Assembly (NCBI GenBank): GCA_049513455.1
Contig: JBEKWB010000015.1
Location: 4,029 to 68,028, forward strand
Reading direction: 5' to 3'
DNA: 64,000 bases
Source of the DNA: Acidimicrobiales bacterium
GTDB taxonomy: Bacteria > Actinomycetota > Acidimicrobiia > Acidimicrobiales > RAAP-2
Below are positions 29,721 through 61,542 of the stretch, in pieces; the stretch's first letter is position 1; each line of letters starts with the position of its first letter. The notes under the pieces were generated by a model, which saw nothing but the letters and a program-made list of their open reading frames with translations, searched no databases and was not told where the DNA came from. The position numbers were made by a program, and so were the translations under genes.

Positions 29721-29734
29721 CTTGTCCGTACAGC
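29721..29734. promoter_or_regulatory. site of the recurrent palindrome: CTTGTCCGTACAGC (11/14 to CTTGTCCGGACAAG)
   Basis: About 72 nt upstream of the SBP start. Contains the exact 10-mer TGTCCGTACA, also present at 39225-39234 and 39315-39324 and as its reverse complement at 34330-34339. Confidence 0.5.
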
Positions 29735-29814
29735 GGAACCTCGTCCCTGTTGCCTTCCCGTGCTCGCGCGCTCGTGCGGTCGTGGGATCGGTCGATGGTT
29801 CGCTCCTCAGTCAC

Positions 29815-30828
29815 TCATGCCGCCGACGGCGAGAGACCGGCCATAGCCTCACCGAGGTCGACACCGGTCGGGATGACCGCGAGGAGGGCCGGGATCGTGA
29901 CGCCGTTTTCCATGTAAGGCCTTATCTTGGCGCGGCAGTCGGCGTACGAGCCGTGGACGACCAGGTCGTCGACCACCTCGTCGGGGATGGCGGCCAGCGC
30001 CCCCTTGCGATCGCCGGCGGCCCAGGCGTCCCACATGGGCTGGAGCGCCGGACCCCGCCCGAGCCAGCGGTGGAACTCGGCGTAGGCGGGGACGTTCAAG
30101 TAGGTGGTGATCAGCCGGCGGCCCACCGTCCGGGCCAGCTCGGCGTCGTCGGAGGGCACCACGAAGATCCGGGCGACGACTTCGTGTCCCGACCCGCCCG
30201 CCTTCTCGACCTCGGCCACCGACTGGCGGACGTCTTCGGCACTGAGCCAGTTGAGGATCACGCCGTCGGCCTCCTTGCCCGCGAGGTGGAGCATTCCTGG
30301 TCGGAGAGCGGCCAGGTAGATGTCGGGTTGCTGTTCGGGCACGCGCGCAAGGCGGAAGCCGGTGACCGAGAACCCCTCGTAGGTCCCCGTCACTTTCTCC
30401 CCGGTGAGCGCCTGGCGCAAGAACCGCAGGGTGTCGCGCACCCGGCGGTAAGGATTCTCGAAGACGAGGCCGTTCCAGTTGGCCACTATGACTTCGGAGG
30501 AGGTACCGAGCCCGAAGGCGAACCGTCCCGGTGCGGCATCGGCGAGAGAGGCGACGCTCTGGGCCAGCAGGGCCGGACCACGCGTGTACGCGGGGGTGAT
30601 GGCGACACCGAGTTGCAGCGAGGGCTCCCAGGCGGCGGCGAGGGCCAGGGGCGTGAAGCCGTCGGCGCCGTCGACTTCCGCCGACCACAGGTCGGTGTAA
30701 CCCAGCTGGCGAAGGCGGGCGAACCATTCCTTGTGCGCGTGGAGCGGGATGTCGTCGAACGGGATCGTGATGCCGTAACGAGATCCCTTGGTCCAAGAGC
30801 CTGCGCTCGTCCCGGTGTTCTCGTTCAT
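29815..30828 (-). CDS. LLM-class (luciferase-like) F420/flavin-dependent oxidoreductase
   Basis: 337-aa ORF with GYTDLWSAEVDGADGFTPLA and RFAFGLGTSS, typical of the LLM family. Confidence 0.85.
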   Translation of the reverse strand: MNENTGTSAGSWTKGSRYGITIPFDDIPLHAHKEWFARLRQLGYTDLWSAEVDGADGFTPLALAAAWEPSLQLGVAITPAYTRGPALLAQSVASLADAAPGRFAFGLGTSSEVIVANWNGLVFENPYRRVRDTLRFLRQALTGEKVTGTYEGFSVTGFRLARVPEQQPDIYLAALRPGMLHLAGKEADGVILNWLSAEDVRQSVAEVEKAGGSGHEVVARIFVVPSDDAELARTVGRRLITTYLNVPAYAEFHRWLGRGPALQPMWDAWAAGDRKGALAAIPDEVVDDLVVHGSYADCRAKIRPYMENGVTIPALLAVIPTGVDLGEAMAGLSPSAA

Positions 30829-30886
30829 ACCTCGAACCTCGTCTGGTCGGTCATTGCGGCACCTGTCAGCATGTCGTTTCTCCCTC

Positions 30887-31702
30887 CTAGGACCCGTGGA
30901 CGGCGCTCAGGTCGTCGCCGGCCATCGATCCGCCATCCACCACGAACTCCTGGGCGGTGCAGTAGGAGGAGTCGTCCGAGGCCAGGAACAGGGCCATGCG
31001 GGCGATCTCCATGGGCCGGGCCATCCGGGCGATCGGTTGTCCCGCACATAACAGGTCGGCCGCTGCGGCGGCGGGATAGGAGTCGACCTCGCCGCGGGCC
31101 GGGGGTACGTCGTACTCATGCCCCACCATGCCTCCCAGGGGAGTTATGACCGAACCCGGATGCAACGAATTGACCCGCACCCCGCGCGGTCCGAGCTCGA
31201 TGGCGGCCGATTTGGTCAGGCCCCGTACGCCCCACTTGGAAGCGACATAGCCTCCGATCATCGACATGCCCTTCATTCCACCGGTGGAGGAGACGTTGAC
31301 GATCGATCCCCGGCCTGCGTCGGCCATGGCCCGGCCGATGATCTTCATGCCGAGGAACGGCCCGACCAGGTTGATGGCGAGCACCCGTTCGAAATCGGCC
31401 AGTTCCATGTCGATGATGGGTGCCACGTGCAGGATGCCTGCGTTGTTGATCAGTACATCGGGGACGCCGAAAGCGGAGACCGTTTCGTCGAGGAGATGTC
31501 GCCAGGCCGATTCGTCGCGGACATCGGTGTGCACGAAACGACCCGACGGGCCCAAGGAGTCGGCAACCTCCTGCCCCTCTGCGTCGAGAAGGTCGGCAAT
31601 CACCACCCGAGCGCCTTCGTCGGCGAGCAACTTTGCTTCTGCCTTGCCCATGCCGCGGGCTGCCCCGGTGACAATGGCGACCCGTCCGTCCACTCGACCC
31701 AC
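30887..31702 (-). CDS. SDR family oxidoreductase (3-alpha/20-beta-hydroxysteroid dehydrogenase-like)
   Basis: In-frame GTG at 31702 after GGAGGGGG. VGRVDGRVAIVTGAARGMGKAEAKLLADEGARVVIADL, YVASKWG. The ORF-track 317-aa version is an upstream extension. Confidence 0.9.
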   Translation of the reverse strand: MGRVDGRVAIVTGAARGMGKAEAKLLADEGARVVIADLLDAEGQEVADSLGPSGRFVHTDVRDESAWRHLLDETVSAFGVPDVLINNAGILHVAPIIDMELADFERVLAINLVGPFLGMKIIGRAMADAGRGSIVNVSSTGGMKGMSMIGGYVASKWGVRGLTKSAAIELGPRGVRVNSLHPGSVITPLGGMVGHEYDVPPARGEVDSYPAAAAADLLCAGQPIARMARPMEIARMALFLASDDSSYCTAQEFVVDGGSMAGDDLSAVHGS

Positions 31703-31869
31703 GTCTGCCCCCTCCGACCTTACGCCCGGGTGGGCTCTCGCCACCCGAAGCAATATGAATGGATGTTTACCGAATGAATATCTACCACGACGTCGACGAC
31801 GCTTCAATGTCTCCGTTCCGGGTGCGTCCGTCATCACCACTCAGGGGCTCGTACCCCGAAGTGGGGGTG

Positions 31870-33084
31870 TCACGCGACGATGCCGCCGTCGACGAGCGCC
31901 TCCCAGCCCTCGTTGGTCACGCCGAGGAGTGATTGGAGGATGTCGCGGGTGTCGTGACCGAAGTCCGGTGCCGGTCCGATAGGTCGCTCACCGACACCGT
32001 CGACCGCAATCCGCCATGGCAGCTTCGGAAGGATCGCCGGGCCGAGCTCGGTGTGGGTCACCTCCCCCAAGAAGTCGTCGGCGACCAGCTGCTGATCGGC
32101 CAGCAGGTCCTCGGCCGTGCGCACCGGCGCGGCCGCCACGCCGACCCCTTGCAGCGCCGAGGCCAGTTCGCCCGCATCGTGCCCGGGCGTCACGCTCGCG
32201 ATCGCCTCGTCGAGTGCCGTCCGGTTCTGCCACCGCAGCTCGAGCGACGCAAACCGTGGATCGTCGGCCAGTCCAGCCAGCTCGAGCACATCGAGCAGCG
32301 CCAGCCACTGCTCGTCGTCGAATGTCGCAACTGCCACCCAGCGATCGTTCCCGGCGCAGGGGTAGCAACCGTGCGGCGCCGCGCCGGGCTCATCATTGGC
32401 CCGCCGGGGCACGGCTTCGTCGTACAGCGCGGCATGAATTACCGGCTCGGGAGCGACTGCGATCATCGCCTCCAACATGGCGGTGTCGATGAATTCACCG
32501 TGACCGGTCTCTTCGCGTCGGTGCAGTGCTCCAAGGATGGACAGCACCGCGACCTGACCCCCGATGACGTCGGCATAGGTTCCGAAGAGCTGCTCCGGTG
32601 GCCCGTCGCGATATCCCGTCGCCGCGCTCAAGCCGCTGAAGGCATGGATGTTGGGGCCCAGCGCCTGAAAGGCTGCGAAATCACCCACGTACCCATAACC
32701 GGTGATCACCGCCATGACGATCCTCGGGTTGATCGCGCTCAGCGCCGCGTAGTCGAGGCCGAACTGTTCGAGCACGCCGGGGCGAAAATTGGCGACGACC
32801 ACGTCGCTGGCGGCGACCAGGTCGCGGCACAACTGCTGGCCCTCGGGCGTGGCGATGTCGAGGCAGCAGCTTCGTTTCATCAGGTTCGTGGCGGCGAAGA
32901 CCGCGCTGTTGTTCAACGTGGGTTCGAGGTTCGCCTTCAATTGCGACAGGCGGAAGGCGTCCGGCCGTGCCGGCGACTCGATCTTGATGACCTCGGCCCC
33001 CAGGCTGCCGAGCCACATGGTGCAGTGAGGTCCCGAGACGAAGTGGGTGAAATCGATGACCCGCACACCCTCGAGTGGTAACAC
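31870..33084 (-). CDS. family III CoA-transferase
   Basis: In-frame GTG at 33084 after GAGGAG. VLPLEGVRVIDFTHFVSGPHCTMWLGSLGAEVIKIESP. The start lies 13 nt downstream of the stop of the preceding transferase gene. Confidence 0.85.
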   Translation of the reverse strand: MLPLEGVRVIDFTHFVSGPHCTMWLGSLGAEVIKIESPARPDAFRLSQLKANLEPTLNNSAVFAATNLMKRSCCLDIATPEGQQLCRDLVAASDVVVANFRPGVLEQFGLDYAALSAINPRIVMAVITGYGYVGDFAAFQALGPNIHAFSGLSAATGYRDGPPEQLFGTYADVIGGQVAVLSILGALHRREETGHGEFIDTAMLEAMIAVAPEPVIHAALYDEAVPRRANDEPGAAPHGCYPCAGNDRWVAVATFDDEQWLALLDVLELAGLADDPRFASLELRWQNRTALDEAIASVTPGHDAGELASALQGVGVAAAPVRTAEDLLADQQLVADDFLGEVTHTELGPAILPKLPWRIAVDGVGERPIGPAPDFGHDTRDILQSLLGVTNEGWEALVDGGIVA

Positions 33085-33097
33085 GGACCCCAGCTCC

Positions 33098-34237
33098 TCA
33101 GTTCGACTCGGCCGGCCGCGCCGGGTACGCACGGCGGCTCGGCAACCCGGGCATGGAAGTCGTCCTCCCGTCCACCTGCACCGGTTGCCAAAATCCCCGG
33201 GCCCCGAGGACGCCCACCGCCAGCACGTCGCCACCCTCGTTCACCGGTGCGCACGGGATCCGCCAGCCTTGGCACAGGTAGAGCAGATGTTCCTTTTCGA
33301 ACTCGGCCGCCCACTCCTCCAGCCGCGGCACGATCTTGACCCAATTGCGATACCGCAGCGCCGGTGTGGCCAGGTCCTGGTCCTCCATCCATTCCGGATG
33401 GTCGAGCAGTCCCTTCAGCGAGTCCCACTGCTGCACGCCTCCCCACGCGAGGTTGAAATAGCCGTCCTTGCACTTGAGGTTGCGATGGTCGACCATGCCG
33501 CCGGCCCCCCGGCCGAACGCGAGATCGCGCCCCATGCCGCCGCCGTAGTAGGCGAAGGTGCCGAGACTCTGCCGGTAACTGTTGACCAGGGCTTCGTGGC
33601 AGCTCACGTCGACGGTGACGACGGCAGACGCCGGGTGACGGTCGCGCGCCAAGACGGCGGCACACACGTTGATGGCAGCGACGAGACCACCCACGAAGGA
33701 TCCCTGGTGGCTGCCCAGCCGCAGCGGCGCCATCGTGCGGGGATCAGCCACCAACCCCGGCACGGCATGGCCGGGACCGGCTCCATGGAAGAGGGTGAGA
33801 TCCGAGGCCAGGTCGTCGCGCCGCGGGCCGCCGCGGCCGTGCGGCGTGACCGATGCCACAATCGGAACCGGGTGATCGCCGACTGAGGTGACATCGATTC
33901 CGGCGGTGGCCAGCAACGGCTCGCGGAAGTCTTCTACCACCACGTCGACGCCGGATACCAACTCCGCCAGCGCGGCGCGACCGGCGGGCCCCGACAGGTC
34001 GATGGGCCGCCTCTCTTTTGCGCGGCCCAGGTAGTCGCGGTAGATCTCGGAGTCACTCAGCCGTGCGTCGAGAAACGCCGATGCCGCGCCATCAGGTCCA
34101 TCCACGATCTCCACGCGTACGACGTCGGCCCCCATCCGCTCCAGAGTGGCGGCGCAGAACGCGGCGCTCAGCGACTGCGAACAGTCGAGCACCTTTACCC
34201 CCACGAGGGAACCGTCGGTCGCGGGCACAGTCGCCAT
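33098..34237 (-). CDS. family III CoA-transferase
   Basis: In-frame ATG at 34237. MATVPATDGSLVGVKVLDCSQSLSAAFCAATLERMGADVVRVE. Confidence 0.85.
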   Translation of the reverse strand: MATVPATDGSLVGVKVLDCSQSLSAAFCAATLERMGADVVRVEIVDGPDGAASAFLDARLSDSEIYRDYLGRAKERRPIDLSGPAGRAALAELVSGVDVVVEDFREPLLATAGIDVTSVGDHPVPIVASVTPHGRGGPRRDDLASDLTLFHGAGPGHAVPGLVADPRTMAPLRLGSHQGSFVGGLVAAINVCAAVLARDRHPASAVVTVDVSCHEALVNSYRQSLGTFAYYGGGMGRDLAFGRGAGGMVDHRNLKCKDGYFNLAWGGVQQWDSLKGLLDHPEWMEDQDLATPALRYRNWVKIVPRLEEWAAEFEKEHLLYLCQGWRIPCAPVNEGGDVLAVGVLGARGFWQPVQVDGRTTSMPGLPSRRAYPARPAESN

Positions 34238-34327
34238 TGCGGCACGACACTGCCACGGCGCACCTCGTGTCCGCAATCGACGACGCGCGTTCTTGCGCCT
34301 GGCCGGCCTGCCCTCCTATGGTGCAGT

Positions 34328-34341
34328 CTTGTACGGACAAC
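34328..34341. promoter_or_regulatory. site of the recurrent palindrome: CTTGTACGGACAAC (12/14)
   Basis: In the divergent region between the CoA-transferase operon (minus) and the VOC-like/SDR/SDR operon (plus). Confidence 0.55.
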
Positions 34342-34395
34342 TGTGAGCCGGTCGGATGGACGGCTCGACCCGCGGAGCGCACGCAGGGGGTGCAG

Positions 34396-35418
34396 ATGGC
34401 GAAATGGTTCGATCGATACTACGGCCCCGACCTCGTGGTCGGCGGGCCGGAGTCCGCCCAACGGACCCTGGAGGAGAAGCTCGGCATTCCCGCAGGCCAG
34501 AGCATGCGGATGACCATACATGGCGTCGGTTTGACGGTGGCGTACCTGGCCGTGAACGAGGACGAGTCGCTCAGCTCCTCGTGCATTCAGCTGATGGGGA
34601 TCAAGCCGCTGGCGCACGACGAACCGCAGGGCGAAATCGGCCGCGACGTACGCAACATGCTGCTCGCCTACATCACGGCGCAGCGAATGGATCGCCCCAT
34701 CGTCACCCACGTGCAGGCGCTGTCGGCTCCGACCGAGGACGACATCGGCGCGATCACCGAAATGCTCAAGTCGCGCGGCGTCCCTCACCTGTGCCGCATG
34801 AAGAATGTCTACATCGGGCTCGTCCAGGAGGACAATGGCCGGATCCACTATGACCCGAGCGCCGATGCCGGCACATACCTCGAATGGGCGCCGACCGTGC
34901 AGACCGACTTTCCCGGCTTCGTCCTGCCCACGTACTTGCCGGAGAACCCAGAGGTGGCGGAGGTGGCGCCGGGATCCATGGTCGGGGTCATCGCCCGGAC
35001 CCAGATCGTACACAGCGCCCAGGCGGTGATCGATCGATTCCAGTGGATGCTCGACTGGCCCGAGGACGGTGACATCGAGTACGTCAAGGGTGACGGGCAG
35101 CGATCCATCGTGATCAAGCCGATCAACGGGCTTAGCGCGGTCTGGGAGTTTGTGGAGCCGACCCGTCCCGACAGCCGGGCCGGCCAGGTTCTCGAGCGCT
35201 ACGGCGAAGGTCCGTGGACGATCCGCATCGGAGTGCACGGGCTGGACGCCAAGCTCGGCGACCTCGAGTCGCGCGGGACACGGTGGAGCGAAATCGGCGA
35301 GGGGCCCAAGGGGGCACGTCGGGTGGCGGTCAACCGTTGGGACCTCCGCGGCATCCCGATCGAACTCGAGGAGGTGCCAGTCGTCTACCGGGGCATCAGC
35401 CAGGGACGGACGGCCTGA
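34396..35418 (+). CDS. hypothetical protein, possibly VOC/glyoxalase-fold in the C-terminal part
   Basis: In-frame ATG at 34396 (MAKWFDRYYGPDLVVGG..). The C-terminal WEFVEPTRPDSRAGQVLERYGEGPWTIRIGV resembles glyoxalase-like domains. The ORF-track 466-aa version extends upstream into the divergent promoter. Confidence 0.5.
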   Translation: MAKWFDRYYGPDLVVGGPESAQRTLEEKLGIPAGQSMRMTIHGVGLTVAYLAVNEDESLSSSCIQLMGIKPLAHDEPQGEIGRDVRNMLLAYITAQRMDRPIVTHVQALSAPTEDDIGAITEMLKSRGVPHLCRMKNVYIGLVQEDNGRIHYDPSADAGTYLEWAPTVQTDFPGFVLPTYLPENPEVAEVAPGSMVGVIARTQIVHSAQAVIDRFQWMLDWPEDGDIEYVKGDGQRSIVIKPINGLSAVWEFVEPTRPDSRAGQVLERYGEGPWTIRIGVHGLDAKLGDLESRGTRWSEIGEGPKGARRVAVNRWDLRGIPIELEEVPVVYRGISQGRTA

Positions 35419-35420
35419 CC

Positions 35421-36206
35421 ATGGCGGGTGATCCCTTCGACCTCACCGGCCGGCGCGCGCTGGTGACCGGGGCCGCGAGCGGCATCGGTCGTCAGACCGC
35501 AATCCGCTTCGCGGGTGCTGGTGCCGAGGTGGTCTGTGTCGACGTCGACGGGGCCGGCGCCCAGGTGACGGCACAAATGATCGAGTCGGCCGGAGGCCGG
35601 GCGACTGCGGTCGCACTCGACGTATCCGACCGGAACCGAGTCTTCGAGGTGATCGCTGGCGCCCCCCCGCTGCACATCCTGTGCAACGTGGCCGGGATTC
35701 TCCGGCACGCCGTCGCCGCCGAGTTGACCGAGACCGACCTCGACGGAGTCCTGGCCATAAACCTCAAGGGGACGTTGTTCTGTGCCCAGGCCGCCTACGA
35801 AGGGATGCGGAAGACCGGCAACGCCAGTGTGATCAATCTCGCGTCGGCGGCGATCGATGTCATCGCGCCGGGCCTCGGCGCCTATGCGATGTCGAAGGCC
35901 GCCATCACCCAGTTGACGCGGACGCTGGCCACCGAGTGGGCCCCTGACGGTATCCGGGTCAACGCGGTCGCCCCGGGCTTTGTCGACACCGCCATGACCA
36001 CGCACTCCTACCGCGATGCAAGTGGTCGGATCGACGAGGCGGGCCGGGCGGACTATCTCGCCAAAATGCGCGACTTCACGCCGCTCGGCATCGCCGCCGA
36101 GGCTGACGACATCGCAACGACGATCTGGTTCCTGGCGGCGGATGCCAGCCGCTACATGACCGGGCAGATCCTGCGCCCCAATGGCGGTATCGCCATGCCC
36201 TGGTGA
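35421..36206 (+). CDS. SDR family oxidoreductase
   Basis: In-frame ATG at 35421. MAGDPFDLTGRRALVTGAASGIGRQTA, YAMSKAA, VNAVAPG. Confidence 0.9.
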   Translation: MAGDPFDLTGRRALVTGAASGIGRQTAIRFAGAGAEVVCVDVDGAGAQVTAQMIESAGGRATAVALDVSDRNRVFEVIAGAPPLHILCNVAGILRHAVAAELTETDLDGVLAINLKGTLFCAQAAYEGMRKTGNASVINLASAAIDVIAPGLGAYAMSKAAITQLTRTLATEWAPDGIRVNAVAPGFVDTAMTTHSYRDASGRIDEAGRADYLAKMRDFTPLGIAAEADDIATTIWFLAADASRYMTGQILRPNGGIAMPW

Positions 36207-36251
36207 CCACCGTAGTGCCGTCGTGATACAGGCCCCGAACAGGGAGAATCG

Positions 36252-37025
36252 ATGAACGGATTGCAGGGCAAGGTCGGCCTCGTCGTCGGGGGGGCCAGCG
36301 GGGTCGGTCGGGCGACCTCTATTCGGTTGGCCGAGGAGGGCGCCAAGGTCGTTGTCGGCGACATCAACGAGCCCGGAGCGGAGGCCGTGGCCAACGAGAT
36401 CCGGGCCGCCGGCGGGGACGCCGAGTCGTGCCGGGTCGACCTGCGCCGGGAGGACGACGTCAAAGCGCTCGTTGCCTTTACGATCGAGAAATTCGGCCGG
36501 GTCGATCTTCTGCACAACGTCGCTTACAACCCGGTGCATGTCACCACGAAGGATTTCGACATCACCACCACGGAGCTCGACGACTACGACGAGATGCACG
36601 CGGTGACCCTGCGCGGCTACGTCCTCACCTGTCGCGAGGTCATCCCGCACATGGTGGCACAGGGTGGCGGCGCCATCGTCAACACCTCCTCGCTCGCCGC
36701 CCTCCGCTCCCTACCGACCGGCTTGCGGTTCTCGTACTCGATTGCGAAGAGCGGTCTCGGTCCGCTGTCGCAGCACATCGCCGTTCGCTACGGCAAGCAG
36801 GGTGTGCGCGCCAACACGGCCGCTCTCGGCATGGTCGTCTCGGAGAGCTTCAAGGCGACAATGAGCCCGGACCGGGTCCAGACGTCCGCCGACTCGGTCC
36901 TCGTGCCCAATCCGGGAGTGCCCGAGGACATCGCGGCGGCGATCGTGTTCCTCTTGTCCGACGATGCCCGCTATATCACTGGACAGACGATCAATATCGA
37001 CGGCGGTTCATCGGCCCGGCTCTGA
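36252..37025 (+). CDS. SDR family oxidoreductase, paralog of 48219-48992
   Basis: 257-aa ORF. MNGLQGKVGLVVGGASGVGRATSIRLAEEGAKVVVGDIN, YSIAKSG. Confidence 0.9.
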   Translation: MNGLQGKVGLVVGGASGVGRATSIRLAEEGAKVVVGDINEPGAEAVANEIRAAGGDAESCRVDLRREDDVKALVAFTIEKFGRVDLLHNVAYNPVHVTTKDFDITTTELDDYDEMHAVTLRGYVLTCREVIPHMVAQGGGAIVNTSSLAALRSLPTGLRFSYSIAKSGLGPLSQHIAVRYGKQGVRANTAALGMVVSESFKATMSPDRVQTSADSVLVPNPGVPEDIAAAIVFLLSDDARYITGQTINIDGGSSARL

Positions 37026-37036
37026 TCCGGCTTGCC

Positions 37037-39189: not shown

Positions 39190-39222
39190 CGCCGCTCTTA
39201 TTTCGGACTTGTCCTCGCGTGA

Positions 39223-39236
39223 GTTGTCCGTACAGA
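39223..39236. promoter_or_regulatory. site of the recurrent palindrome: GTTGTCCGTACAGA (10/14, exact TGTCCGTACA core)
   Basis: In the ACAD-pair/APH-pair divergent region. An extra half-site CTTGTCC lies at 39208-39214. Confidence 0.45.
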
Positions 39237-39312
39237 TCGTGAAACTTATGCACTGTGCGCGCGCGGCGCAAGGACGCTGGGCTCCCTTGCCCATCCAGAT
39301 GGCCGAAACTAT

Positions 39313-39326
39313 GGTGTCCGTACAAC
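39313..39326. promoter_or_regulatory. site of the recurrent palindrome: GGTGTCCGTACAAC (10/14, exact TGTCCGTACA core)
   Basis: Second site in the same divergent region, 27 nt upstream of the preferred APH start codon. Confidence 0.45.
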
Positions 39327-39352
39327 TGATCTCCACGCGCAGACGAGGGACC

Positions 39353-50246: not shown

Positions 50247-50279
50247 ACGCCGGGATGCGGCGCACCAAGGGAGGCGATC

Positions 50280-51176: not shown

Positions 51177-51221
51177 GCCCGCGGAGGAGACGCTTCCGTG
51201 CAGTGAGAAAGGACGAATAGA

Positions 51222-52343: not shown

Positions 52344-52386
52344 GCGGCAACTGCACGCCTGATATCGGGAGTCCCACCCGCCCGTC

Positions 52387-53148: not shown

Positions 53149-53159
53149 CACGACGTCCG

Positions 53160-53903: not shown

Positions 53904-54937
53904 GTGTCCTCAAGGGTAGCTGTTCGTCCACCCGAGCGGATGGCGTCGACCACCGGTTGCCACGTCGAGGGATCGCTCTCGTAGGGGATGTAGAGGCTGG
54001 TGCGCTGCACGAGGCCTTCGAATCGCTCCGCCAACGCCGGGGCGATCTCAGCGGGTTCCGCCACGATGGCAAAGCCGTTCAGCACGTCGTCATCGATCAA
54101 CTCGCCCATCTCGTCCCAGCGGTCTTGGCGAGCCAGCGCATTGAGGTCGCTTTGCAGCTCCCCCCATCCGTGGACCTCCAGGACCGGGCGGTAGGCCGGG
54201 GTGGACGCATAGAACGCAATCTGCTGTTTCGTCTCGCGTAGGGCGATATCGAATGCTTCGGCGGTGGCGCCGGTGACGATGAAGGACGGGCCGGAGATCT
54301 CGAACCCCTCCATGCCCTTGCCGATGCCCGCTCTTCCCCGCAAAAGTGCAGGAATGGTGACCTCGCGCAGGTAGCGCTCCGTGGTGAAGGCATGGCAGAT
54401 GAACCCGTCGGCGACCTCTCCGGCCACCTCCGTCATGCGCGGCCCCACTCCGGCCACCATCACTTTGGGGGGTCCGAACGGGTTCGGGTCGGGCGCAAAG
54501 AACGGCGTCATCAGCGTGTGGTGATAGAACTCCCCTTCGAAGTCCAGCGGCACGCCTTCGTTCCAGCTTCTCCATATGGCACGGAGGGCGAGAACGAACT
54601 CTCGCATACGTGGTGCCGGGTGCGACCATGGCATCGAGAAGCGATGGAGGATGTGGGACCTCACCTGTGTGCCGAGGCCGAGTACGAGTCGACCTCCCGA
54701 GAGGGCCTGCAGGTCGTTGGCGCTGATGGCCACGGTCATGGGACTGCGGGCGAAGGCCACGACAATCGACGTCCCGACTTCAGCGGTCGTGGTCGTCTGG
54801 GCGGAGAGGAGGACGGACAAGAACGGGTCGTGGGTCGTTTCCGAAATCCAGATCCCTGAGTACCCGGCCTCCTCATAGCGGCGCGCCGCCTCCCCCGCCT
54901 GCTGTTGCGGGACGGTCAGGCGGACGTCGAGCTTCAT
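53900..54937 (-). CDS. LLM-class F420/flavin-dependent oxidoreductase
   Basis: 345-aa ORF with AGYSGIWISETTHDPF and RLVLGLGTQV. Overlaps both neighbours by 4 nt. Confidence 0.85.
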   Translation of the reverse strand: MKLDVRLTVPQQQAGEAARRYEEAGYSGIWISETTHDPFLSVLLSAQTTTTAEVGTSIVVAFARSPMTVAISANDLQALSGGRLVLGLGTQVRSHILHRFSMPWSHPAPRMREFVLALRAIWRSWNEGVPLDFEGEFYHHTLMTPFFAPDPNPFGPPKVMVAGVGPRMTEVAGEVADGFICHAFTTERYLREVTIPALLRGRAGIGKGMEGFEISGPSFIVTGATAEAFDIALRETKQQIAFYASTPAYRPVLEVHGWGELQSDLNALARQDRWDEMGELIDDDVLNGFAIVAEPAEIAPALAERFEGLVQRTSLYIPYESDPSTWQPVVDAIRSGGRTATLEDT

Positions 54938-55494
54938 GAATCCTCGAGGCCGGGAGCCGACGGAGCAACCGCAGCCGCGCCAGGGGACCTGATGGGTGTC
55001 GTCGGTTCCGGGAAGTAGGGGATCGCATCGGCCTCGGACCTCCAGACCATGAAGGTGCGCTCGAAGTCGAGCACCTCCTCGCCCCGCTGATTGATCCCAC
55101 GGGTGGCGCAGGTGACGATTCCTGCCTTTGGTCGGGAGGCGGAAGACCGAACCCCTGTGATGATGCTCTCGCCGTAAAGCGTGTCGCCGACGAACACCGG
55201 CGCGGTCAAGCGGATCTCTTTCCAGCCCAGGTTGGCGATAGCGTTCTGGCTGATGTCGGCCACGGAGAGCCCCAGTACGAGGGCGACGGTCAATCCCGAG
55301 TTGACGAGCTCCTGGCCATGTTCGGACTTCTTGGCGTAGTCGGCGTTGAAGTGCAGCTGGTTGGTGTTCATGGTGAGGAGGGAGAACCAGCGATTGTCGG
55401 CCTCGCCGATCGTCCGTCCCAGCTGGTGCCGGTAGACCTGACCCAAGGCAAAGTCCTCATAGAAATTGCCCTTCTGCATGAGAAATTCAGGCAC
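54934..55494 (-). CDS. MaoC-like (R)-specific enoyl-CoA hydratase, hotdog fold
   Basis: 186-aa ORF with NQLHFNADYAKKSEHGQELVNS, VFVGDTLYGESIITGVRSS and GIVTCATRGINQRGEEVLDFERT. Confidence 0.85.
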   Translation of the reverse strand: MPEFLMQKGNFYEDFALGQVYRHQLGRTIGEADNRWFSLLTMNTNQLHFNADYAKKSEHGQELVNSGLTVALVLGLSVADISQNAIANLGWKEIRLTAPVFVGDTLYGESIITGVRSSASRPKAGIVTCATRGINQRGEEVLDFERTFMVWRSEADAIPYFPEPTTPIRSPGAAAVAPSAPGLEDS

Positions 55495-55502
55495 GGTTCG
55501 CG

Positions 55503-56657
55503 TCAGCCCTCGGCTAGGAGTGCGCGGGCGATAATTATGCGCTGGATCTCGTTGGTGCCTTCGCCGATGCAGAGCAGGGGAGCGTCACGGTAGTAGCGCT
55601 CGATGTGCCCCTCGGTGGAGTAGCCGTAGGCGCCATGGATGCGCATGGCATCGGTGGCGTTGTCCAGGGCTGCCTCGGTGGCCACCAACTTGGCCATCCC
55701 CGCCTCCAGGTCGCAGCGCTGGCCGGCATCGAATGCCTCTGCCGCTTTCTGGACGAGAAGCCGGGAGGAGGCGGTGCGGCAGGCCATGTCGGCGAGCTTC
55801 AACTGGATCGCCTGGTGCTGACCGATGGGCTTTCCCATGGTGTGACGAGTGCGGCTGTACTGGAGCGAGGCGTCCAGGGCAGCCGTGGACAGGCCTACAC
55901 CCCGGGCGGCCACGTTGATCCGGCCCAGTTCGAGGGCGCCCACGGTCTGATGAAAGCCCTGGCCCGGCACTGTCCCGATGAGCCGGTTCGCCGGGACCTC
56001 CATGTCGTCGAAGTGCAACTCGACGGTGTCGACGCCTTTGTAGCCGATCTTGCCCAGCTGTCGGGACACCTCGTAGCCGTCGGAGCGCAGGACAATGAGC
56101 AGGGACATCCCGGCGTGCCGGGGTTGCGCCTGAGGATCCGTTTTCACCAGAAGCGCCAGACAGTTCCCCTTGCCACCGTTGGTGATCCACAGTTTCGTCC
56201 CCGACACCACATAGCGGTCCCCATCTCGTACGGCCACGGTGCGGATGGCCTGCAGATCGCTGCCGCAATCCGGTTCGGTCAGGCCGAGCCCTCCCCGCAA
56301 TTCACCGGAAGCGAAACGGGGGAGCCACTCCTGGCGTTGTTCCTCGGTCCCGTAGCGGCGCACCAACTCGGCCATCATGAGGTGGGAGTTGATGACCCCG
56401 GTGAGAGACATCCAGACCTTGGAGATTGTCTCGACTATGCGCGAATAGGCCAGGGCGGAAAGCCCCAAGCCCCCGTACGCCTCGGGAATGGTGGCACCGA
56501 AGAGTCCGAATTCCTGCATCTGTTCGACCATGGCCGTCGGATACTTGTCAGCGTGCTCGAACTCGAGTACCTCAGGCAGGACGTCTTGCTCGAGCCACTT
56601 CTCAATGACGCGGACGAACTCGTCGAGTTCACCTTCGTGTTGCATCGGATCCTCCAT
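55503..56657 (-). CDS. acyl-CoA dehydrogenase (canonical short/branched-chain type with catalytic Glu)
   Basis: 384-aa ORF with LTEPDCGSDLQAIRTVA, YVVSGTKLWITNG and IGEGTNEIQRIIIARALL. Confidence 0.95.
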   Translation of the reverse strand: MEDPMQHEGELDEFVRVIEKWLEQDVLPEVLEFEHADKYPTAMVEQMQEFGLFGATIPEAYGGLGLSALAYSRIVETISKVWMSLTGVINSHLMMAELVRRYGTEEQRQEWLPRFASGELRGGLGLTEPDCGSDLQAIRTVAVRDGDRYVVSGTKLWITNGGKGNCLALLVKTDPQAQPRHAGMSLLIVLRSDGYEVSRQLGKIGYKGVDTVELHFDDMEVPANRLIGTVPGQGFHQTVGALELGRINVAARGVGLSTAALDASLQYSRTRHTMGKPIGQHQAIQLKLADMACRTASSRLLVQKAAEAFDAGQRCDLEAGMAKLVATEAALDNATDAMRIHGAYGYSTEGHIERYYRDAPLLCIGEGTNEIQRIIIARALLAEG

Positions 56658-56708
56658 CGGGTCAGTGCGCCGGAAAGCCCAGAGCTGTCGTGACTTGCGC
56701 CCCTCCAG

Positions 56709-56722
56709 CTTGTCCGGACAAT
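56709..56722. promoter_or_regulatory. best site of the recurrent palindrome: CTTGTCCGGACAAT (13/14)
   Basis: In the divergent region between ACAD 55503-56657 (minus operon) and ACAD 56798 (plus operon). Confidence 0.6.
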
Positions 56723-56797
56723 ATACGCCATGGAACGGGCCTCACGTTCGAACGGAATCTCTCGTCGCGCCGGCGGATGTAAGGAGTTCTCCCGCCT

Positions 56798-58036
56798 GTG
56801 AAAGCCGAATTCGACAGGATCAGCGATGCGGAGATCAGGTCCACGGTGACCATATGGGCCCGAGCGACGTGGGATCCGACAATGACCCTGGGGGAGTGGT
56901 GGAGGCAGCTGGCGGATGCCGGATGGGCGGTTCCGAGCTGGCCGGTCGAGTGGCTGGGGAAAGGGTGGACGCGGGCGCAGGCGGTAGTGGCGCACGCCGC
57001 GCTCGCGGAGGCAGGGGTGCCCGGTCCCCCCGCCGGACTCGGCGTCATGCTGGCGGGTCCCACCCTCCTCCGCCACGGTGACGACGCGCAAAAGCAGCGA
57101 TTTCTTCCCGGGATCGCCGACGGGAGCGAAAACTGGTGTCAGCTGTTCAGCGAGCCGGGAGCGGGATCGGATCTGGCCGGTGTCCAGACCCGGGCGGTCC
57201 GACAGGACGCCCGGTGGGTAGTGACCGGTCAGAAGGTGTGGACCTCGAACGGCCAGCTGGCCGATCGGGGCATGCTGCTGGCCCGGACCAACGAGAGCGC
57301 TCCCAAGCATCGGAACCTCACCTGGTTCGCGCTGGACATGGCACAATCCGCCGTGGAGGTGCGCCCGCTCCGGGAGATGACGGGAAGATCTCTGTTCACT
57401 GAAGTGTTTCTCGATGGCGCCAGCGCGACCGACGACGAGATCGTCGGTGGTCTCGACGGGGGTTGGCCTGTGGCCAGGACCACATTGATGAACGAGCGCA
57501 TGGGTCTCGGAGGCGGGGGAGGAGCGGTCGGTGGTGTCCCTGGCCGGCGGGGGGGCATGCTCGAGACCCAGGCGGTCGCTGCGCTCGCTGCAGGGGGACG
57601 GAGCCGCCAGAGCTCGGGCACCGCATTGGCCATGCGCGGTCGGGCTTTTGCGGAACTGGCCGAGTTGGCGCAAAAGACCGGGCGCCACCGCGATCGGGTC
57701 GTGCGGGACCGTCTGAGCGATCTCTACATTGTCGAACGCGTGGCGCAGATGACCGGTCAGCGAGCCCGGGCCCAACGGGGGAGCGTCGCCGACGGAGGCG
57801 CGGAATCGAGTGGTTCCATCGGAAAACTACTGGGGAGCCGGGCCACGGCCCGGGCCCGCGATCTGGGTCTGGCTATGCTCGGGCCCCTCGGGATGCTCTG
57901 GGCCCAGGACCGATCACTGGCCGGCGCGCTCGTTGAGCTCTGTCTCTTCAGTCCGGCCGTGTCGATCTACGGGGGGACGGATCAGATCCAACGGAACATT
58001 CTGGCCGAGCGGGTACTGGGTCTGCCCAGGGAGTGA
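56798..58036 (+). CDS. acyl-CoA dehydrogenase
   Basis: 412-aa ORF (GTG start) with FSEPGAGSDLAGVQTRA, WVVTGQKVWTSNG and IYGGTDQIQRNILAERVLGLPRE. Contains a Gly-rich insertion (GLGGGGGAVGGVPGRRGG). Confidence 0.9.
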   Translation: MKAEFDRISDAEIRSTVTIWARATWDPTMTLGEWWRQLADAGWAVPSWPVEWLGKGWTRAQAVVAHAALAEAGVPGPPAGLGVMLAGPTLLRHGDDAQKQRFLPGIADGSENWCQLFSEPGAGSDLAGVQTRAVRQDARWVVTGQKVWTSNGQLADRGMLLARTNESAPKHRNLTWFALDMAQSAVEVRPLREMTGRSLFTEVFLDGASATDDEIVGGLDGGWPVARTTLMNERMGLGGGGGAVGGVPGRRGGMLETQAVAALAAGGRSRQSSGTALAMRGRAFAELAELAQKTGRHRDRVVRDRLSDLYIVERVAQMTGQRARAQRGSVADGGAESSGSIGKLLGSRATARARDLGLAMLGPLGMLWAQDRSLAGALVELCLFSPAVSIYGGTDQIQRNILAERVLGLPRE

Positions 58037-59289
58037 ACGGGTCAGCTACCCGCCCTACACACGAGAGGTCAAAGAGTGTGAGTGACGAAAACGAATTCGA
58101 CGACATCACCGAGGGTGTTCGGGCGTTCTTGCGCTCTGAGGTGGTGCCCCGCCAGGTACGGCTAGCGGAGTCCGGCCACTCCGAGTACGGGCCGAACGGA
58201 AGGTTCAGCGACGAAGTGTTGCAGGCCTTCTCCGAAGTGCGCATGGCTTCTGCCGAGGCCGGTTTCTACTGCATCCTGGCGCCCGAAGCCGTCGGTGGGG
58301 CGGGCCTGGGGTTCGAGGCGCTCTATCGGGTGTGGGAGACGGTCTTCGACTTCTGTGGTGCCAATTACTGGCTCGGACACCAGGCGATCAGCCATTGGTC
58401 ACGCGGGCCGAGCCACCTCTATCTCCACGTCGACGAAGGGTTCCGGGAAGAGGTGCTTCCGGAGCTGTGCAGCGGGCGTCGAACGACATGCTTTGCCATG
58501 TCGGAGCCGGACGCCGGTTCCGACGTCTGGAACATGCGCACGACGGCCACCAAGGTCGAGGGGGGATGGATCCTCAACGGCACCAAGCAGTGGTCGACCA
58601 ACGCTCCCTACGCCGGCTGGGCCATCACGTTCGCCGTGACGGATCGAGAAGCATTCAATGCCCACAGGCGCGGGTTGACCGGATTCGTCGTGGACCTGAA
58701 CAGCGAGGGCGTCCTGGTGGAGAGCGTCATTCCCATGTTCGGGCACAGCGGAGGGGACGAAGGGATCGTCAGCTTCTCGGATGCCTTCGTGGCCGACCGC
58801 CAAGTAATCGGCGAGCCGGGTGATGGACTGGTCCACGCCATGTCCGGCGTCTCCTCGGGTCGCCTCTACAACAGCGGGCGGGCGGTGGGGCTGGCCCGCT
58901 GGGCCGTGGCGCGTGCGCTCTCCTACGCCGAAGAGCGCCGGACGTTCGGCTCGCCCCTGATTGAGAACCAGGCCATCGCCTTCCCGCTGGCCGATGCCGC
59001 CATGGATATCCATGCCGCCCATCTGATGGGCCTCGAAACTGCGCGGCGCCTGGATCGGGGGACGTGCACCCGAGCCGAGGTGTCCATGACCAAGACCTAC
59101 TCCACGGAGATGGCGGTTCGAGCCATCGATCACGCCATGCAGGTCCACGGGGCGATGGGCTTCACCAACGAGATGTACCTGGCGCAGGCGTGGCAGCAGA
59201 TGCGCCGCACGTGCGTGGCCGATGGCTCTTCTGAAATGATGCGGATACAGATCGTGAAGGCCCTCCGCCGGGACGGAGTGCAGTTCTAG
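58033..59289 (+). CDS. acyl-CoA dehydrogenase
   Basis: 418-aa ORF. GTGA overlap with the upstream ACAD; an alternative GTG near 58075-58080 (VSDENEFDD) is possible. Has MSEPDAGSDVWNMRTTA, WILNGTKQWSTNA and VHGAMGF. Confidence 0.85.
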   Translation: MNGSATRPTHERSKSVSDENEFDDITEGVRAFLRSEVVPRQVRLAESGHSEYGPNGRFSDEVLQAFSEVRMASAEAGFYCILAPEAVGGAGLGFEALYRVWETVFDFCGANYWLGHQAISHWSRGPSHLYLHVDEGFREEVLPELCSGRRTTCFAMSEPDAGSDVWNMRTTATKVEGGWILNGTKQWSTNAPYAGWAITFAVTDREAFNAHRRGLTGFVVDLNSEGVLVESVIPMFGHSGGDEGIVSFSDAFVADRQVIGEPGDGLVHAMSGVSSGRLYNSGRAVGLARWAVARALSYAEERRTFGSPLIENQAIAFPLADAAMDIHAAHLMGLETARRLDRGTCTRAEVSMTKTYSTEMAVRAIDHAMQVHGAMGFTNEMYLAQAWQQMRRTCVADGSSEMMRIQIVKALRRDGVQF

Positions 59290-59302
59290 TCCGTGAGCTG
59301 CC

Positions 59303-60202
59303 TCAGCGGAGGGCGTTGCGCAGCGCGCGAAAGTCGTCGGCCATCGACGTCGCCGGGACGGCGTCGGTGGGATCCTCAATCTGCTCATGATGGTCGCGGA
59401 CATCCTCGGGATCGAGCACACCGTCGCGCTTCGTCCATCCCGCGGTCATGCCGACGAAGAATCGAGCGACCCGACCGCCTCCGACGCTGTACAGGTAGCC
59501 GGTCGTGGTGCACTCCTCATGGGTCAACCACGCCACGACCGCGGAGACCTGGGTCGGGTCAACTGAGTCGATCAGCTTGCCGAGCACATTCTCGGTCATT
59601 CTCGTCCTGGCGATGGGAGCGATGGCGTTCGAGGTGATGTTGTGCTTGGACCCCTCGATGGCCAGTGTGTTGGAGAAACCGACCAGGCCGGCCTTGGCGG
59701 CGGCATAGTTGCTCTGACCGAAATTGCCGAACACACCGGCGGCGGACGACGTGAAGACCACCCTTCCGAACTGCTGCTCTCGCATGTGGCGCCATGCCGG
59801 CAGGGTCACATTGAATGCACCCCTCAGGTGGACGTCGATCACGGCCCCGAACGTGTCGCCATCGCTGTTGTGGAACGCCCGATCCCGCAGGATCCCCGCG
59901 GTGTTGACCAGAATGTCGATCCGGCCGAAGTTGTCGATCGCCGTTTGCACGATGGCCCGGCCACCCTCCGGTGTCGCCACGCTGTCGAGGTTGGGTACGG
60001 CCGATCCTCCCGAAGCGGTGATCTCCTCCACCACTTGTTGCGCCGGTCCGTCGCTGGTGCCGTCGCCCTCGACGGACCCGCCGATATCGTTCACGACCAC
60101 GCTGGCACCGCGCCGCGCCAGCAGGAGAGCATGCTGGCGGCCCAGGCCACCTCCGGCTCCGGTCACTACTGCTACCCGGCCATCGAAGCGAAGTTGACTC
60201 AT
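59303..60202 (-). CDS. SDR, MFE-2/Hsd4A-like (R)-3-hydroxyacyl-CoA dehydrogenase type; paralog of 46224-47138
   Basis: 299-aa ORF. RVAVVTGAGGGLGRQHALLLARRGASVVVNDIGG.., LVNTAGILRD, YAAAKAG. Confidence 0.85.
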   Translation of the reverse strand: MSQLRFDGRVAVVTGAGGGLGRQHALLLARRGASVVVNDIGGSVEGDGTSDGPAQQVVEEITASGGSAVPNLDSVATPEGGRAIVQTAIDNFGRIDILVNTAGILRDRAFHNSDGDTFGAVIDVHLRGAFNVTLPAWRHMREQQFGRVVFTSSAAGVFGNFGQSNYAAAKAGLVGFSNTLAIEGSKHNITSNAIAPIARTRMTENVLGKLIDSVDPTQVSAVVAWLTHEECTTTGYLYSVGGGRVARFFVGMTAGWTKRDGVLDPEDVRDHHEQIEDPTDAVPATSMADDFRALRNALR

Positions 60203-60240
60203 ATGCTCAAACTACTCGCGGATACGGGCGCAGCCCAAAA

Positions 60241-60254
60241 CCTGTCCGGACTAG
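60241..60254. promoter_or_regulatory. site of the recurrent palindrome: CCTGTCCGGACTAG (12/14)
   Basis: In the 56-nt gap between SDR start 60202 and the first possible start (GTG 60259) of the racemase-like gene. Confidence 0.5.
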
Positions 60255-60258
60255 ATTT

Positions 60259-61518
60259 GTGCACGACGCCGAGATCATCGAGCGAGCGACGACGGCGCCA
60301 GCCGGCGCCGGATCGACGCCAGAACGAGGGGAGCCCCGCCGCGTGACGCACGTCCAACCAGTTCCACCCGGAGTGGCGGCCGAGACGCCGTCACCGCCGT
60401 CGGGGCCGCTTTGCGGTCTGCGGGTGATCGAGCTGGCTGGAATTGGTCCGTCTCCCTTCTGCGGAATGGTCCTCTCGGACATGGGCGCCGATGTTGTCCG
60501 TGTAGACCGGATCGAGAGCCGGGAGGGCGGGGATGACGCCCCACCGGCCTTGTGGGATCGCGGACGCCGATCAGTGGCATTGGACCTGAAAGACCCCGGC
60601 GACATCGAGACGCTGCTGCGCCTGGTCGACACGGCGGACGCGCTGATCGAAGGGTATCGACCGGGGGTGGTGGAGCGTCTGGGTATCGGCCCGGACATAT
60701 GCCTGGCGCGTAATCGGCGTCTCGTCTACGGGCGGGTGACCGGTTGGGGCCGCGAGGGTCCGCTGGCCCAGACGCCCGGTCACGACTTGAACTTCATCGC
60801 ACTCTCCGGCGTTCTCAACGCGATAGGCCATCACGAGGGGCGCCCGGTCCCGCCCCTCAATCTCGTCGGTGATTTCGGCGGAGGGGGGATGCTCCTGGCC
60901 CTGGGTGTGTGTGCCGCGTTGGTCCACGCCGCCCGCTCGGGCATCGGCCAGGTGGTCGATGCGGCGATGATCGACGGTTCCGCCCAGTTGATGACATCGA
61001 TCTTCGGCCTGCGCGCCCAGGGCAGGTGGAACGACGAGCGGGGCTCGAACCTCATTGATTCGGGTGCCCCGTTCTACGACGTGTACGAAACGTCAGATGG
61101 CGCGTACGTGTCAATCGCGGCGTTGGAAAGAAGATTCTTCGCCGATCTCGTCACGCGCCTGGGTCTCGCCGACGACCCGGTCATGGGGAACAGGATGGAT
61201 CCGGCTTCATGGCCTGCCATGCGACAGCGGTTCGTCGACACGTTCAAGACCAGGACCCAAGCCGCCTGGTGCGCCCTTCTCGAGGGTACCGACTGTTGCT
61301 TCGCTCCGGTGCTGAGCATGCACGACGCACCGGAGCATCCCCAGAATGCCCTGCGAAGGACCTTTGTCGATCACGATGGTGTCATCCAGCCTGCTCCGGC
61401 GCCCCGCTTCAGCGTGACGCCGGGCGGCATCTCAAGGCCCGCACCCCGCCGGGGTCAACACACCGAGGAAGTCCTGGCGGAGTGGGGGGTCGCCCCTCAC
61501 CCGGAGCGGGGAGAGTAA
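60259..61518 (+). CDS. family III CoA-transferase, alpha-methylacyl-CoA racemase-like (start uncertain)
   Basis: GPLCGLRVIELAGIGPSPFCGMVLSDMGADVVRVDRI closely resembles the racemase (Mcr/AMACR) N-terminus. About 50 non-conserved residues precede it, so the true start may be a downstream GTG (for example about 60343). Confidence 0.8.
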   Translation: MHDAEIIERATTAPAGAGSTPERGEPRRVTHVQPVPPGVAAETPSPPSGPLCGLRVIELAGIGPSPFCGMVLSDMGADVVRVDRIESREGGDDAPPALWDRGRRSVALDLKDPGDIETLLRLVDTADALIEGYRPGVVERLGIGPDICLARNRRLVYGRVTGWGREGPLAQTPGHDLNFIALSGVLNAIGHHEGRPVPPLNLVGDFGGGGMLLALGVCAALVHAARSGIGQVVDAAMIDGSAQLMTSIFGLRAQGRWNDERGSNLIDSGAPFYDVYETSDGAYVSIAALERRFFADLVTRLGLADDPVMGNRMDPASWPAMRQRFVDTFKTRTQAAWCALLEGTDCCFAPVLSMHDAPEHPQNALRRTFVDHDGVIQPAPAPRFSVTPGGISRPAPRRGQHTEEVLAEWGVAPHPERGE

Positions 61519-61528
61519 CGACGTGAGA

Positions 61529-61542
61529 CTTGCACGGACAAG
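61529..61542. promoter_or_regulatory. site of the recurrent palindrome: CTTGCACGGACAAG (12/14), overlapping a -35-like TTGCAC
   Basis: TTGCAC (61530-61535), a 17-nt spacer, then TATCTT (61553-61558). About 100 nt upstream of the thiolase start. Confidence 0.55.

Follow-up and report, generated by a model that had tools for sequence, protein, structure and literature searches.

A conserved palindrome as putative repressor operator of a multi-operon regulon for acyl-CoA catabolism in an uncultured bacterium of the order Acidimicrobiales

The HutC operator in the Pseudomonas Phut promoter has been described as TGTA-N2-TACA (PMC12977541), and the dre site bound by NagR/DasR as GTGGTCTAGACCAC, in which the guanine at position -4 makes the key arginine contact (PMC4333415). 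In Mycobacterium smegmatis, MSMEG_5630 (MscA, Ms5630) has been classed as a HutC-subfamily GntR regulator (PMC2018728), and its main site validated by electrophoretic mobility shift assay (EMSA) as well as lacZ reporter (box2) is TTGTCCGGACAA (PMC11711680). A palindrome of comparable layout recurs in a 64,000-nt stretch of DNA (65% GC; contig JBEKWB010000015.1), here called the window, from an uncultured bacterium of the Acidimicrobiales, where an original prediction made from the sequence had regarded it as the candidate master operator of a gene cluster. The best matches to the window are metagenome-assembled genomes of Acidimicrobiales/Acidimicrobiaceae. The analysis reported here indicates that this palindrome is very probably a transcription factor operator. 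Its copies would serve as the operators of one dimeric, ligand-responsive transcriptional repressor, which would coordinate a multi-operon acyl-CoA/organic-acid catabolic regulon.

The nine 14-mers of the original prediction are all present at their coordinates with the sequences given, and the word counts were reproduced, the 10-mer TGTCCGTACA occurring four times and TGTCCGGACAATA and CTTGC(G/A)CGGACAAGTAG twice each. TGTCCGKACA occurs at six places in the window (eight strand matches) against 0.26 expected, the degenerate core TGTNCGNACA six times against 0.69 expected, a count reached by none of 100 shuffles, and the full 14-mer with up to three mismatches nine times against 3.1 expected. 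A position weight matrix was trained on the nine window sites only, so that the window scan is circular for those nine; they scored 15.8-21.6 bits, and the best other match in the whole window, located in coding sequence, reached 9.4 bits. When the regions between genes were scored one by one, eight intergenic regions at 29.6-61.6 kb contained the matches of 15.8-21.6 bits and the other 22, among them every intergenic region in the left 29 kb of the window, all remained at or below 8.2 bits. The predicted number of at least nine promoter regions is thus correct for the sites and one too high for the regions, as the sites at 39223 and 39313 share one. The gene map combined JGI gene calls on near-identical metagenome contigs with Pfam assignments. 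The claim that all sites are intergenic holds on this map, since the lengths of orthologues, for an enoyl-CoA hydratase (ECH; 305 aa, start 43889) and an acyl-CoA dehydrogenase (ACAD; 335 aa, start 39189), and the beginning of the thiolase domain (from about residue 45) shift three gene starts, and three sites that had lain inside over-long open reading frame (ORF) calls become intergenic. Lone half-sites are found at chance frequency in coding DNA and, in intergenic DNA, solely within full sites, and within the window the motif is comparably dense in neither coding nor shuffled sequence, the control proposed with the prediction. The two weaker variants fared less well, that given as 44086 being located at 44085-44098 and retaining the GTCCGGAC core alone, and that at 14608 being doubtful with 8.2 bits.

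The sites are retained in close strains, the proteins of which are 82-99% identical. More distant relatives were reached via orthologues of a 340-aa VOC-like protein encoded in the window, which form a graded identity series from 95% to 49%, and were scanned with the matrix derived from the window sites only against independent JGI gene calls. Five loci (L094-L097 and L099) with 61-74% VOC-like protein identity and GC contents of 62-71% contain twelve sites of at least 14 bits, all twelve intergenic. For L094-L097, where intergenic DNA amounts to 5.7%, nine of nine sites are intergenic (naive P ~6e-12), and the background in 777 kb of other actinobacterial loci is eight matches of at least 13 bits. 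Equivalent promoters carry the sites in these relatives, namely those upstream of the VOC-like gene, between the ECH and ADP-forming ligase genes and upstream of a solute-binding protein (SBP) gene. An identical copy of site 34328 precedes the orthologue in L099, and the L096 region orthologous to the ECH/ADP-forming ligase region contains two sites. Conservation ahead of orthologous operons, likewise named as a check in the original prediction, is therefore borne out.

The consensus of 18 sites, of which nine are those of the window and nine are independent, is A-s-T-T-G-T-(C/A)-C-G-(G/T)-A-C-A-A-s-T. The informative stretch comprises 12 bp, TTGTMCGKACAA (positions 2-13), in which G4 and C11 are invariant; it lies within the 14-bp consensus of the original prediction, the outer C and G of which (positions 1 and 14) carry just 0.11 bit. 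The A at -8 and T at +8 are weakly conserved (0.53 bit). Counted by half-site, G-4/C+4 is invariant (36/36) and T-3/A+3 is present in 32 of 36. The sequences flanking the 18 sites share no similarity and are uninformative.

Such a palindrome could be something other than a protein operator, namely a repetitive element, an RNA or DNA hairpin (a terminator or a structure of the 5' untranslated region) or an artefact of chance or promoter composition, and its occurrence in AT-richer intergenic DNA, together with the capacity of part of it to serve as a -35-like (GACA) or -10-like element, would be in keeping with this. The 30-nt contexts of the sites, however, fold no better than shuffles (z -0.94 to +1.0) and no T-tracts follow them, while the substitutions between sites, as in CTTGC...ACAAG, disrupt pairing and are not compensatory. 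The lack of common flanks and of any Rfam match, and the retention of base identity across both half-sites in organisms of 62-71% GC, likewise speak against a non-operator origin. Hairpin, terminator and repeat are excluded on the folding scores, the non-compensatory changes, the unshared flanks and the absence of Rfam matches, and a non-operator origin of any kind is considered very improbable.

The sites are, furthermore, associated with promoter-like sequences. Across 21 sites, the -10-like hexamer TAnnnT is enriched about 10-fold over distal positions in two stretches around the 14-mer, -15..-1 and +9..+16, with a peak at -3. On the promoters deduced from such matches, the operator would cover the -10 element or transcription start in front of ACAD4, ECH1, the APH-type kinase gene APH1, the VOC-like gene and CoA-transferase 4, would occupy the spacer of the promoter of SDR6 (short-chain dehydrogenase/reductase, SDR) and would lie on the -35 element of the thiolase and SBP1 promoters. 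The edge of site 56709 is overlapped by a -10-like TATATT on the minus strand, site 48074 is flanked by a -35-like TTGCCC and a -10-like TAGTGT, and site 61529 overlaps a -35-like TTGCAC, with a -10-like TATCTT 17 bp further on. The ADP-forming acyl-CoA synthetase gene (44138->46264) has a -10-like TAGAAT, which the variant at 44085 precedes by 10 bp. A strict sigma-70 scan returned zero promoters, which counts against this arrangement and leaves the placement to be deduced from the TAnnnT matches. Nevertheless, adjoining -10-like hexamers and lacking a stable hairpin, the palindrome behaves as a repressor operator, and the geometry appears to be that of steric repression. Since each site is on or beside the -10 or -35 element of its operon's core promoter, bound repressor would occlude RNA polymerase, and a pathway metabolite would free the operator.

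The single regulon envisaged in the original prediction is in agreement with these data, the conserved palindrome tying about 13 transcription units together between 27 and 64 kb (Table 1). The putative regulon encodes four family-III CoA-transferases, six ACADs, three enoyl-CoA hydratases, a MaoC protein, seven SDRs, three luciferase-like monooxygenases (LLM), two APH-type kinases, an ADP-forming CoA ligase, the VOC-like protein, a cyclase, a thiolase and an AMP-ligase, as well as two SBPs. The divergent region between SDR5 and ECH2 (47040-47234, 195 bp) is the sole sizeable one in the middle of the regulon to lack the motif (best -4.0 bits), and these two genes may be under different control.

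Table 1. Coordinates of the putative regulon, its candidate operator sites, the corresponding palindromes in relatives and the TetR-family gene within the regulon
Feature	Position	Strand	Score	Context
Putative regulon extent	26998..64000			~13 transcription units, ~33 genes; from gene calls, Pfam and site map
Operator site CTTGTCCGTACAGC	29721..29734		19.1 bits	77 bp upstream of SBP1-CoA-transferase operon (29643<-26998)
Operator site CTTGTACGGACAAC	34328..34341		21.6 bits	Divergent region, CoA-transferase 3 (-) / VOC-like 340-aa gene (+)
Operator site GTTGTCCGTACAGA	39223..39236		17.9 bits	33 bp upstream of ACAD2 (ATG 39189, -; start inferred from 335-aa orthologue in L094)
Operator site GGTGTCCGTACAAC	39313..39326		16.6 bits	26 bp upstream of APH1; overlapped by -10-like TATGGT
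Operator site TCTGTCCGGACAAT	43946..43959		17.8 bits	Upstream of ECH1-SBP2 operon (-, start GTG 43889)
Weak variant TGCGTCCGGACGTC, GTCCGGAC core only	44085..44098		Low matrix score	Uncertain status
Operator site CTTGCGCGGACAAG	48074..48087		15.8 bits	Heads SDR6-ACAD3-cyclase-LLM2-TetR operon (48219->53148)
TetR-family gene, TetR_N + TetR_C_24	52387..53148	+		253 aa; related to KstR2/FadR/PfmR/Mce3R
Operator site CTTGTCCGGACAAT	56709..56722		21.5 bits	Divergent ACAD4 (-) / ACAD5 (+) region; conserved in L089
Operator site CCTGTCCGGACTAG	60241..60254		16.4 bits	56-bp divergent region, SDR7 (-) / CoA-transferase 4 (+)
Operator site CTTGCACGGACAAG	61529..61542		18.7 bits	Upstream of thiolase and AMP-ligase genes
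Sites in relative L094	7749, 14710
Site in relative L095	9752
Sites in relative L096	7720, 7816, 19970
Sites in relative L097	9928, 14329, 14429
Sites in relative L099	2844, 9965, 13004
TTGT-N10-ACAA palindrome, L009	9912
TTGT-N10-ACAA palindromes, L010	390, 4233
TTGT-N10-ACAA palindromes, L035	6136, 9940

Comparison with related contigs is informative for two of the regions. A motif-like CCTGTCCGTAKAGG of 11.6 bits is located directly before ECH3 in L089 (9815-9828) and L092 (3624-3637), at the equivalent of about window position 53904. In both contigs an insertion splits ECH3 from LLM3 and makes a new promoter region, while the overlapping ECH3 and LLM3 genes of the window lack a site; an operator seems to arise wherever a new promoter is needed. 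Upstream of SDR6, window positions 48158-48218 hold the remnant of an ABC-transporter ATPase gene (compare L089 3400-4140). Positions 48158-48190 correspond to L089 3845-3877 and those from 48191 onward to L089 4109 onward. An internal deletion of 231 bp is implied, together with the loss of all upstream sequence. An intact Liv-type permease/ATPase pair precedes SDR6 in L089; in the window the transporter genes are gone with operator site 48074 in place, and their loss leaves Peripla_BP_6 binding proteins without an adjacent permease.

The VOC-like gene used to reach the relatives (34396-35418, plus strand) has no Pfam family above threshold. The C-terminal third of its product is distantly similar to methylmalonyl-CoA epimerase/VOC proteins (E ~7e-6, PDB 6XBS), and its 55 clusters (95-49% identity) always occur among ACAD, CoA-transferase and SDR genes, sometimes in two copies (L095). 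The protein is probably an acyl-CoA epimerase/isomerase-like enzyme. As a candidate for the regulator itself it was rejected, given its resemblance to methylmalonyl-CoA epimerase and its lack of a helix-turn-helix.

The architecture of the operator points to a regulator of the HutC type. Its core, TGTnCGnACA, is laid out as in HutC operators, with GT/AC at -4/-3 and +3/+4 from the dyad. It shares with the Phut site (PMC12977541) a 10-bp palindromic core, TGT-x-NN-x-ACA, of identical spacing and the overlap of a repressor site with a promoter, and TGTACGTACA, found in L094 and L097, matches the HutC consensus exactly. Unlike the Phut site, the window motif has an invariant CG at its centre and C or A, not A, at position 4; its copies front acyl-CoA catabolic genes rather than those of histidine utilisation, have no adjacent hutC-like gene and occupy eight promoter regions, instead of one or two, heading about 13 transcription units. 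The dre site (PMC4333415) has the same 14-16-bp geometry with GT and AC retained at -4/-3 and +3/+4, the contacted G-4 being invariant in the window motif, and DasR is an example of a HutC-type regulator in control of a large unlinked regulon. The two differ at -5 (T in the window, G in dre) and -1/+1 (CG against TA), and the effector class of the dre system, amino-sugar phosphates, and its regulon content are unrelated to those of the window. Several other motifs were compared with the sites. Those of Mycobacterium tuberculosis DasR (from ChIP) and Nocardioides Lcin1 differ from the window motif, the sites nowhere fit the BkaR motif GTTAnTnnnnAnTAAC (PMC3920632), and the LacI-type (cre-like), LexA/Cheo-box and Rex-box patterns were dropped for unfitting spacing or half-sites.

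String searches of the literature for the motif found MscA box2 to be the sole bacterial regulatory-site use of TTGTCCGGACAA, which coincides exactly with the consensus and with the 12-bp core of site 56709 and likewise stems from an actinobacterial host. By analogy with the EMSA performed on the identical 12-mer, a HutC-type protein may bind the window sites. MscA is reported to activate, in a Cu2+/redox-sensitive manner, a single 'antioxidant' operon to which mscA itself belongs (PMC11711680), while the window system is multi-operon and repression is proposed.

Linkage to HutC genes is observed elsewhere. In a Phenylobacterium metagenome-assembled genome (MAG; L039), reached via an ACAD4 orthologue, tblastn with a GntR consensus located a gene coding for a GntR+UTRA protein. 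ATTTGTCCGGACATAT lies 74 bp before the ATG of this gene, and the neighbouring HpcH-lyase/MaoC/ACAD/CoA-transferase operon is headed by a second site, AATGTCCGGACAAATT. This GntR protein was searched against plasmids and nine homologues (35-40% identity) were inspected. In seven of the nine, or eight of ten with L039, TGTnCGnACA is present once or twice in the region of about 150 bp upstream of the gene's start, compared with a background of about one match per 150 kb in unrelated loci. All matches at the nine plasmid loci are in the upstream region of the GntR gene save one, which is also intergenic. The promoter consensus, ATATGTYCGRACATAT, is without description in the literature searched apart from MscA box2. 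The clade of HutC-type GntR proteins bearing it comprises L101-L106 and L109, on plasmids or chromids of Cupriavidus, Burkholderia, Roseomonas, Ralstonia, Paraburkholderia and Methylobacterium, together with L039; the palindromes are of 16 bp, duplicated about 25 bp apart in the genes' own divergent promoters. Neighbouring genes code for pcaB/adenylosuccinate-lyase-like proteins, dicarboxylate symporters, MmgE/PrpD, ACAD, family-III CoA-transferase and MaoC proteins, and this CoA-transferase/ACAD/MmgE-PrpD neighbourhood resembles the gene content of the window. The proteobacterial autoregulated genes thus share with the window the TGTnCGnACA core with its A...T flanks and the CoA-transferase/ACAD/MaoC/MmgE-PrpD surroundings. 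They differ in having A rather than T at -5 and one or two sites in the divergent promoter of the regulator within a small local cluster, in contrast to the nine sites in eight regions of the window, where no regulator gene of this kind is seen.

On operator architecture, presence in HutC gene promoters and identity with the MscA site, the regulator is more likely to be a HutC-type GntR protein, and as there is no GntR gene in the window it would be encoded elsewhere. Several observations weigh against this. A GntR-like gene was found neither in the window nor in L089-L099 (about 130 kb of relatives with the motif) by tblastn with a consensus (E<=1) and by Pfam on called genes, and genes for HutC regulators usually adjoin their targets. 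Those HutC genes that have the motif are proteobacterial or mycobacterial, none being from Acidimicrobiia, and the promoter of the one HutC gene encountered in the Acidimicrobiales (L035 3087-3860) lacks such a site and has a different sequence. MscA is reported to be an activator. Furthermore, one motif-headed operon of the regulon ends in a TetR gene, and palindromes of 14 bp are typical of TetR operators too. The window motif accordingly fits the HutC operator class in sequence and linkage and departs from it in the adjacent regulator. Overall, the complete explanation, in which a HutC-type GntR repressor encoded outside the 64-kb window binds the sites, is favoured with moderate confidence.

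TetR genes had been nominated as regulators in the original prediction. For that at 22719 (TetR_C_38) this is not upheld, the best match in its own divergent promoter being 2.0 bits, and the divergent promoter of a third TetR gene, at 5048, likewise has no site (best -3.9 bits). The TetR gene at 52387 has a 43-bp upstream gap with no promoter of its own, and its nomination stands only through operon-level site 48074, a homologue (P0009) having a motif-free promoter. As the last gene of the operon headed by this site and the sole regulator gene in the 32-kb span, it is a reasonable local candidate, judged less likely than a HutC-type GntR. As a KstR2/FadR-like, acyl-CoA-responsive protein, it could bind the operators as a KstR-like master regulator, autoregulated via site 48074. 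The gene sits between two motif-controlled operons in an arrangement kept in four related contigs, its closest solved relatives (PfmR 3VPR, Mce3R, Fad35R and KstR2) are acyl-CoA-sensing TetRs, and a 14-bp palindrome is compatible with TetR binding. The 51%-identical P0009, however, has an identical recognition helix (LTAGAMYNHF) and lacks the motif both in its 80-bp divergent promoter and on its contig. Relatives of TetR 52387 were found only at 79% identity or more, with one at about 50%, whereas the motif-bearing clusters span a continuous series of 49-95%; a metagenome scan returned close strains only, and a HMMER search was uninformative within 50-100% identity owing to clustering. The equivalent position is taken by an unrelated TetR gene in L094 and a PadR-like gene in L096, and four other loci have no regulator. 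The absence of tblastn matches to TetR 52387 within 10 kb on either side of the VOC-like gene in L094-L097 carries no weight, as 17 kb separate the two genes in the window itself. With the motif fitting the HutC operator class and linked to HutC genes, control by TetR 52387 is considered unlikely.

At the same catabolic module, sister lineages have a different palindrome. The closest Acidimicrobiales MAGs among the ACAD4-orthologue loci of GTDB genomes are without the 14-mer, and gammaproteobacterial ACAD4 orthologues occur in different gene contexts. Three Acidimicrobiales MAGs with ACAD4 proteins 76-79% identical (L009, L010 and L035) keep the ACAD6-ACAD5/ACAD4-thiolase-SDR7-MaoC module. Their ACAD4/ACAD5 promoter contains an 18-bp palindrome, TTGT-N10-ACAA, with the same TATATTGTC edge as in the window and half-sites spaced by 10 bp instead of 4 bp. 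A second copy is found in the promoter of a MarR gene (L035 5579-6058, minus strand), divergent from a MaoC hydratase/AMP-ligase pair. This suggests that regulation of the catabolic module was rewired between lineages. It also lends something to the view that the window sites are bound by a regulator of another family (MarR, PadR, IclR or other) encoded elsewhere, the HutC likeness being convergent, in that regulators at ACAD4/ACAD5-type promoters are exchanged and share half-site words. Nevertheless, sites in eight HutC-gene promoters and the MscA site agree with the window motif in the exact 10-bp core and its spacing, in the central CG and in the A/T flanks, no comparable link to another family was found, and such a regulator is considered improbable. 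For the preferred HutC-type repressor, an evolutionary extension may be put forward tentatively, as one that probably does not hold in full. An unlinked HutC-type GntR would be the master regulator of a lipid/alicyclic-acid regulon of more than 30 genes across several uncultured Acidimicrobiia, in a KstR-like role; the operator would have spread to a dozen promoters from a small autoregulated CoA-transferase/ACAD cluster, as still present in Proteobacteria, and sister lineages would have rewired the identical promoters to the MarR-associated TTGT-N10-ACAA palindrome.

Outside the putative regulon, three further features of the window were recorded. Near-identical 34-bp direct repeats, CGAGTGCGCCCCTCGGGA(G/T)TCGAACCCGAAACCT, at 4820-4853 and 10218-10251 resemble the 3' half of a minus-strand tRNA gene and bracket a 5.4-kb segment with the gene order TetR(5048)-P450-DAP-dehydrogenase-like-SBP-DUF7064. 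ARAGORN found no intact tRNA and no integrase was recognised; the repeats may be att-like scars of an integrated island. A 125-aa ORF (1284-1661, minus strand) matches the Glu/Leu/Phe/Val dehydrogenase domain over just its final ~50 residues and probably represents a pseudogene or gene fragment. The perfect 6+4+6 palindrome GACACCCGGAGGTGTC (23385-23400) is situated close to where the TetR_C_38 gene (22719-23441) has its 5' end, upstream of the AMP-ligase gene at 23589; it may be the own operator of TetR 22719, distinct from the motif studied here.

The eight promoter regions and about 13 transcription units provide a testable regulon map for a large, functionally opaque catabolic island of uncultured soil/peat Acidimicrobiia, and the shared operator implies a joint role of the genes in one pathway. 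Attention in seeking the regulator moves from the neighbouring TetR genes to HutC-type GntR proteins, and the site is tied to a largely uncharacterised HutC clade (ATATGTYCGRACATAT), of which MscA may be the only studied member. The motif can be used as a probe for delimiting the regulon in MAGs, cloning the regulator and finding the inducer.

As a whole, the system resembles in its logic the KstR and KstR2 regulons of mycobacterial steroid catabolism, in which one 14-bp palindrome precedes many divergent beta-oxidation-type operons over tens of kb, with ACAD pairs, an Hsd4A-like SDR, MaoC, thiolase and CoA-transferases in common with the window. The KstR operator is TnnAACnnGTTnnA and that of KstR2 AnCAAGnnCTTGnT. 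As the original prediction had maintained, the window sites fit neither of these, the KstR2 operator having the CTTG and CAAG words in reverse order relative to the dyad. KstR and KstR2 belong to the TetR family, whereas the regulator of the window is probably a GntR protein. The arrangement proposed here does not represent a new regulatory principle, and its distinction is the size of the putative regulon and the linking of an uncharacterised HutC clade to CoA-transferase/ACAD catabolism.

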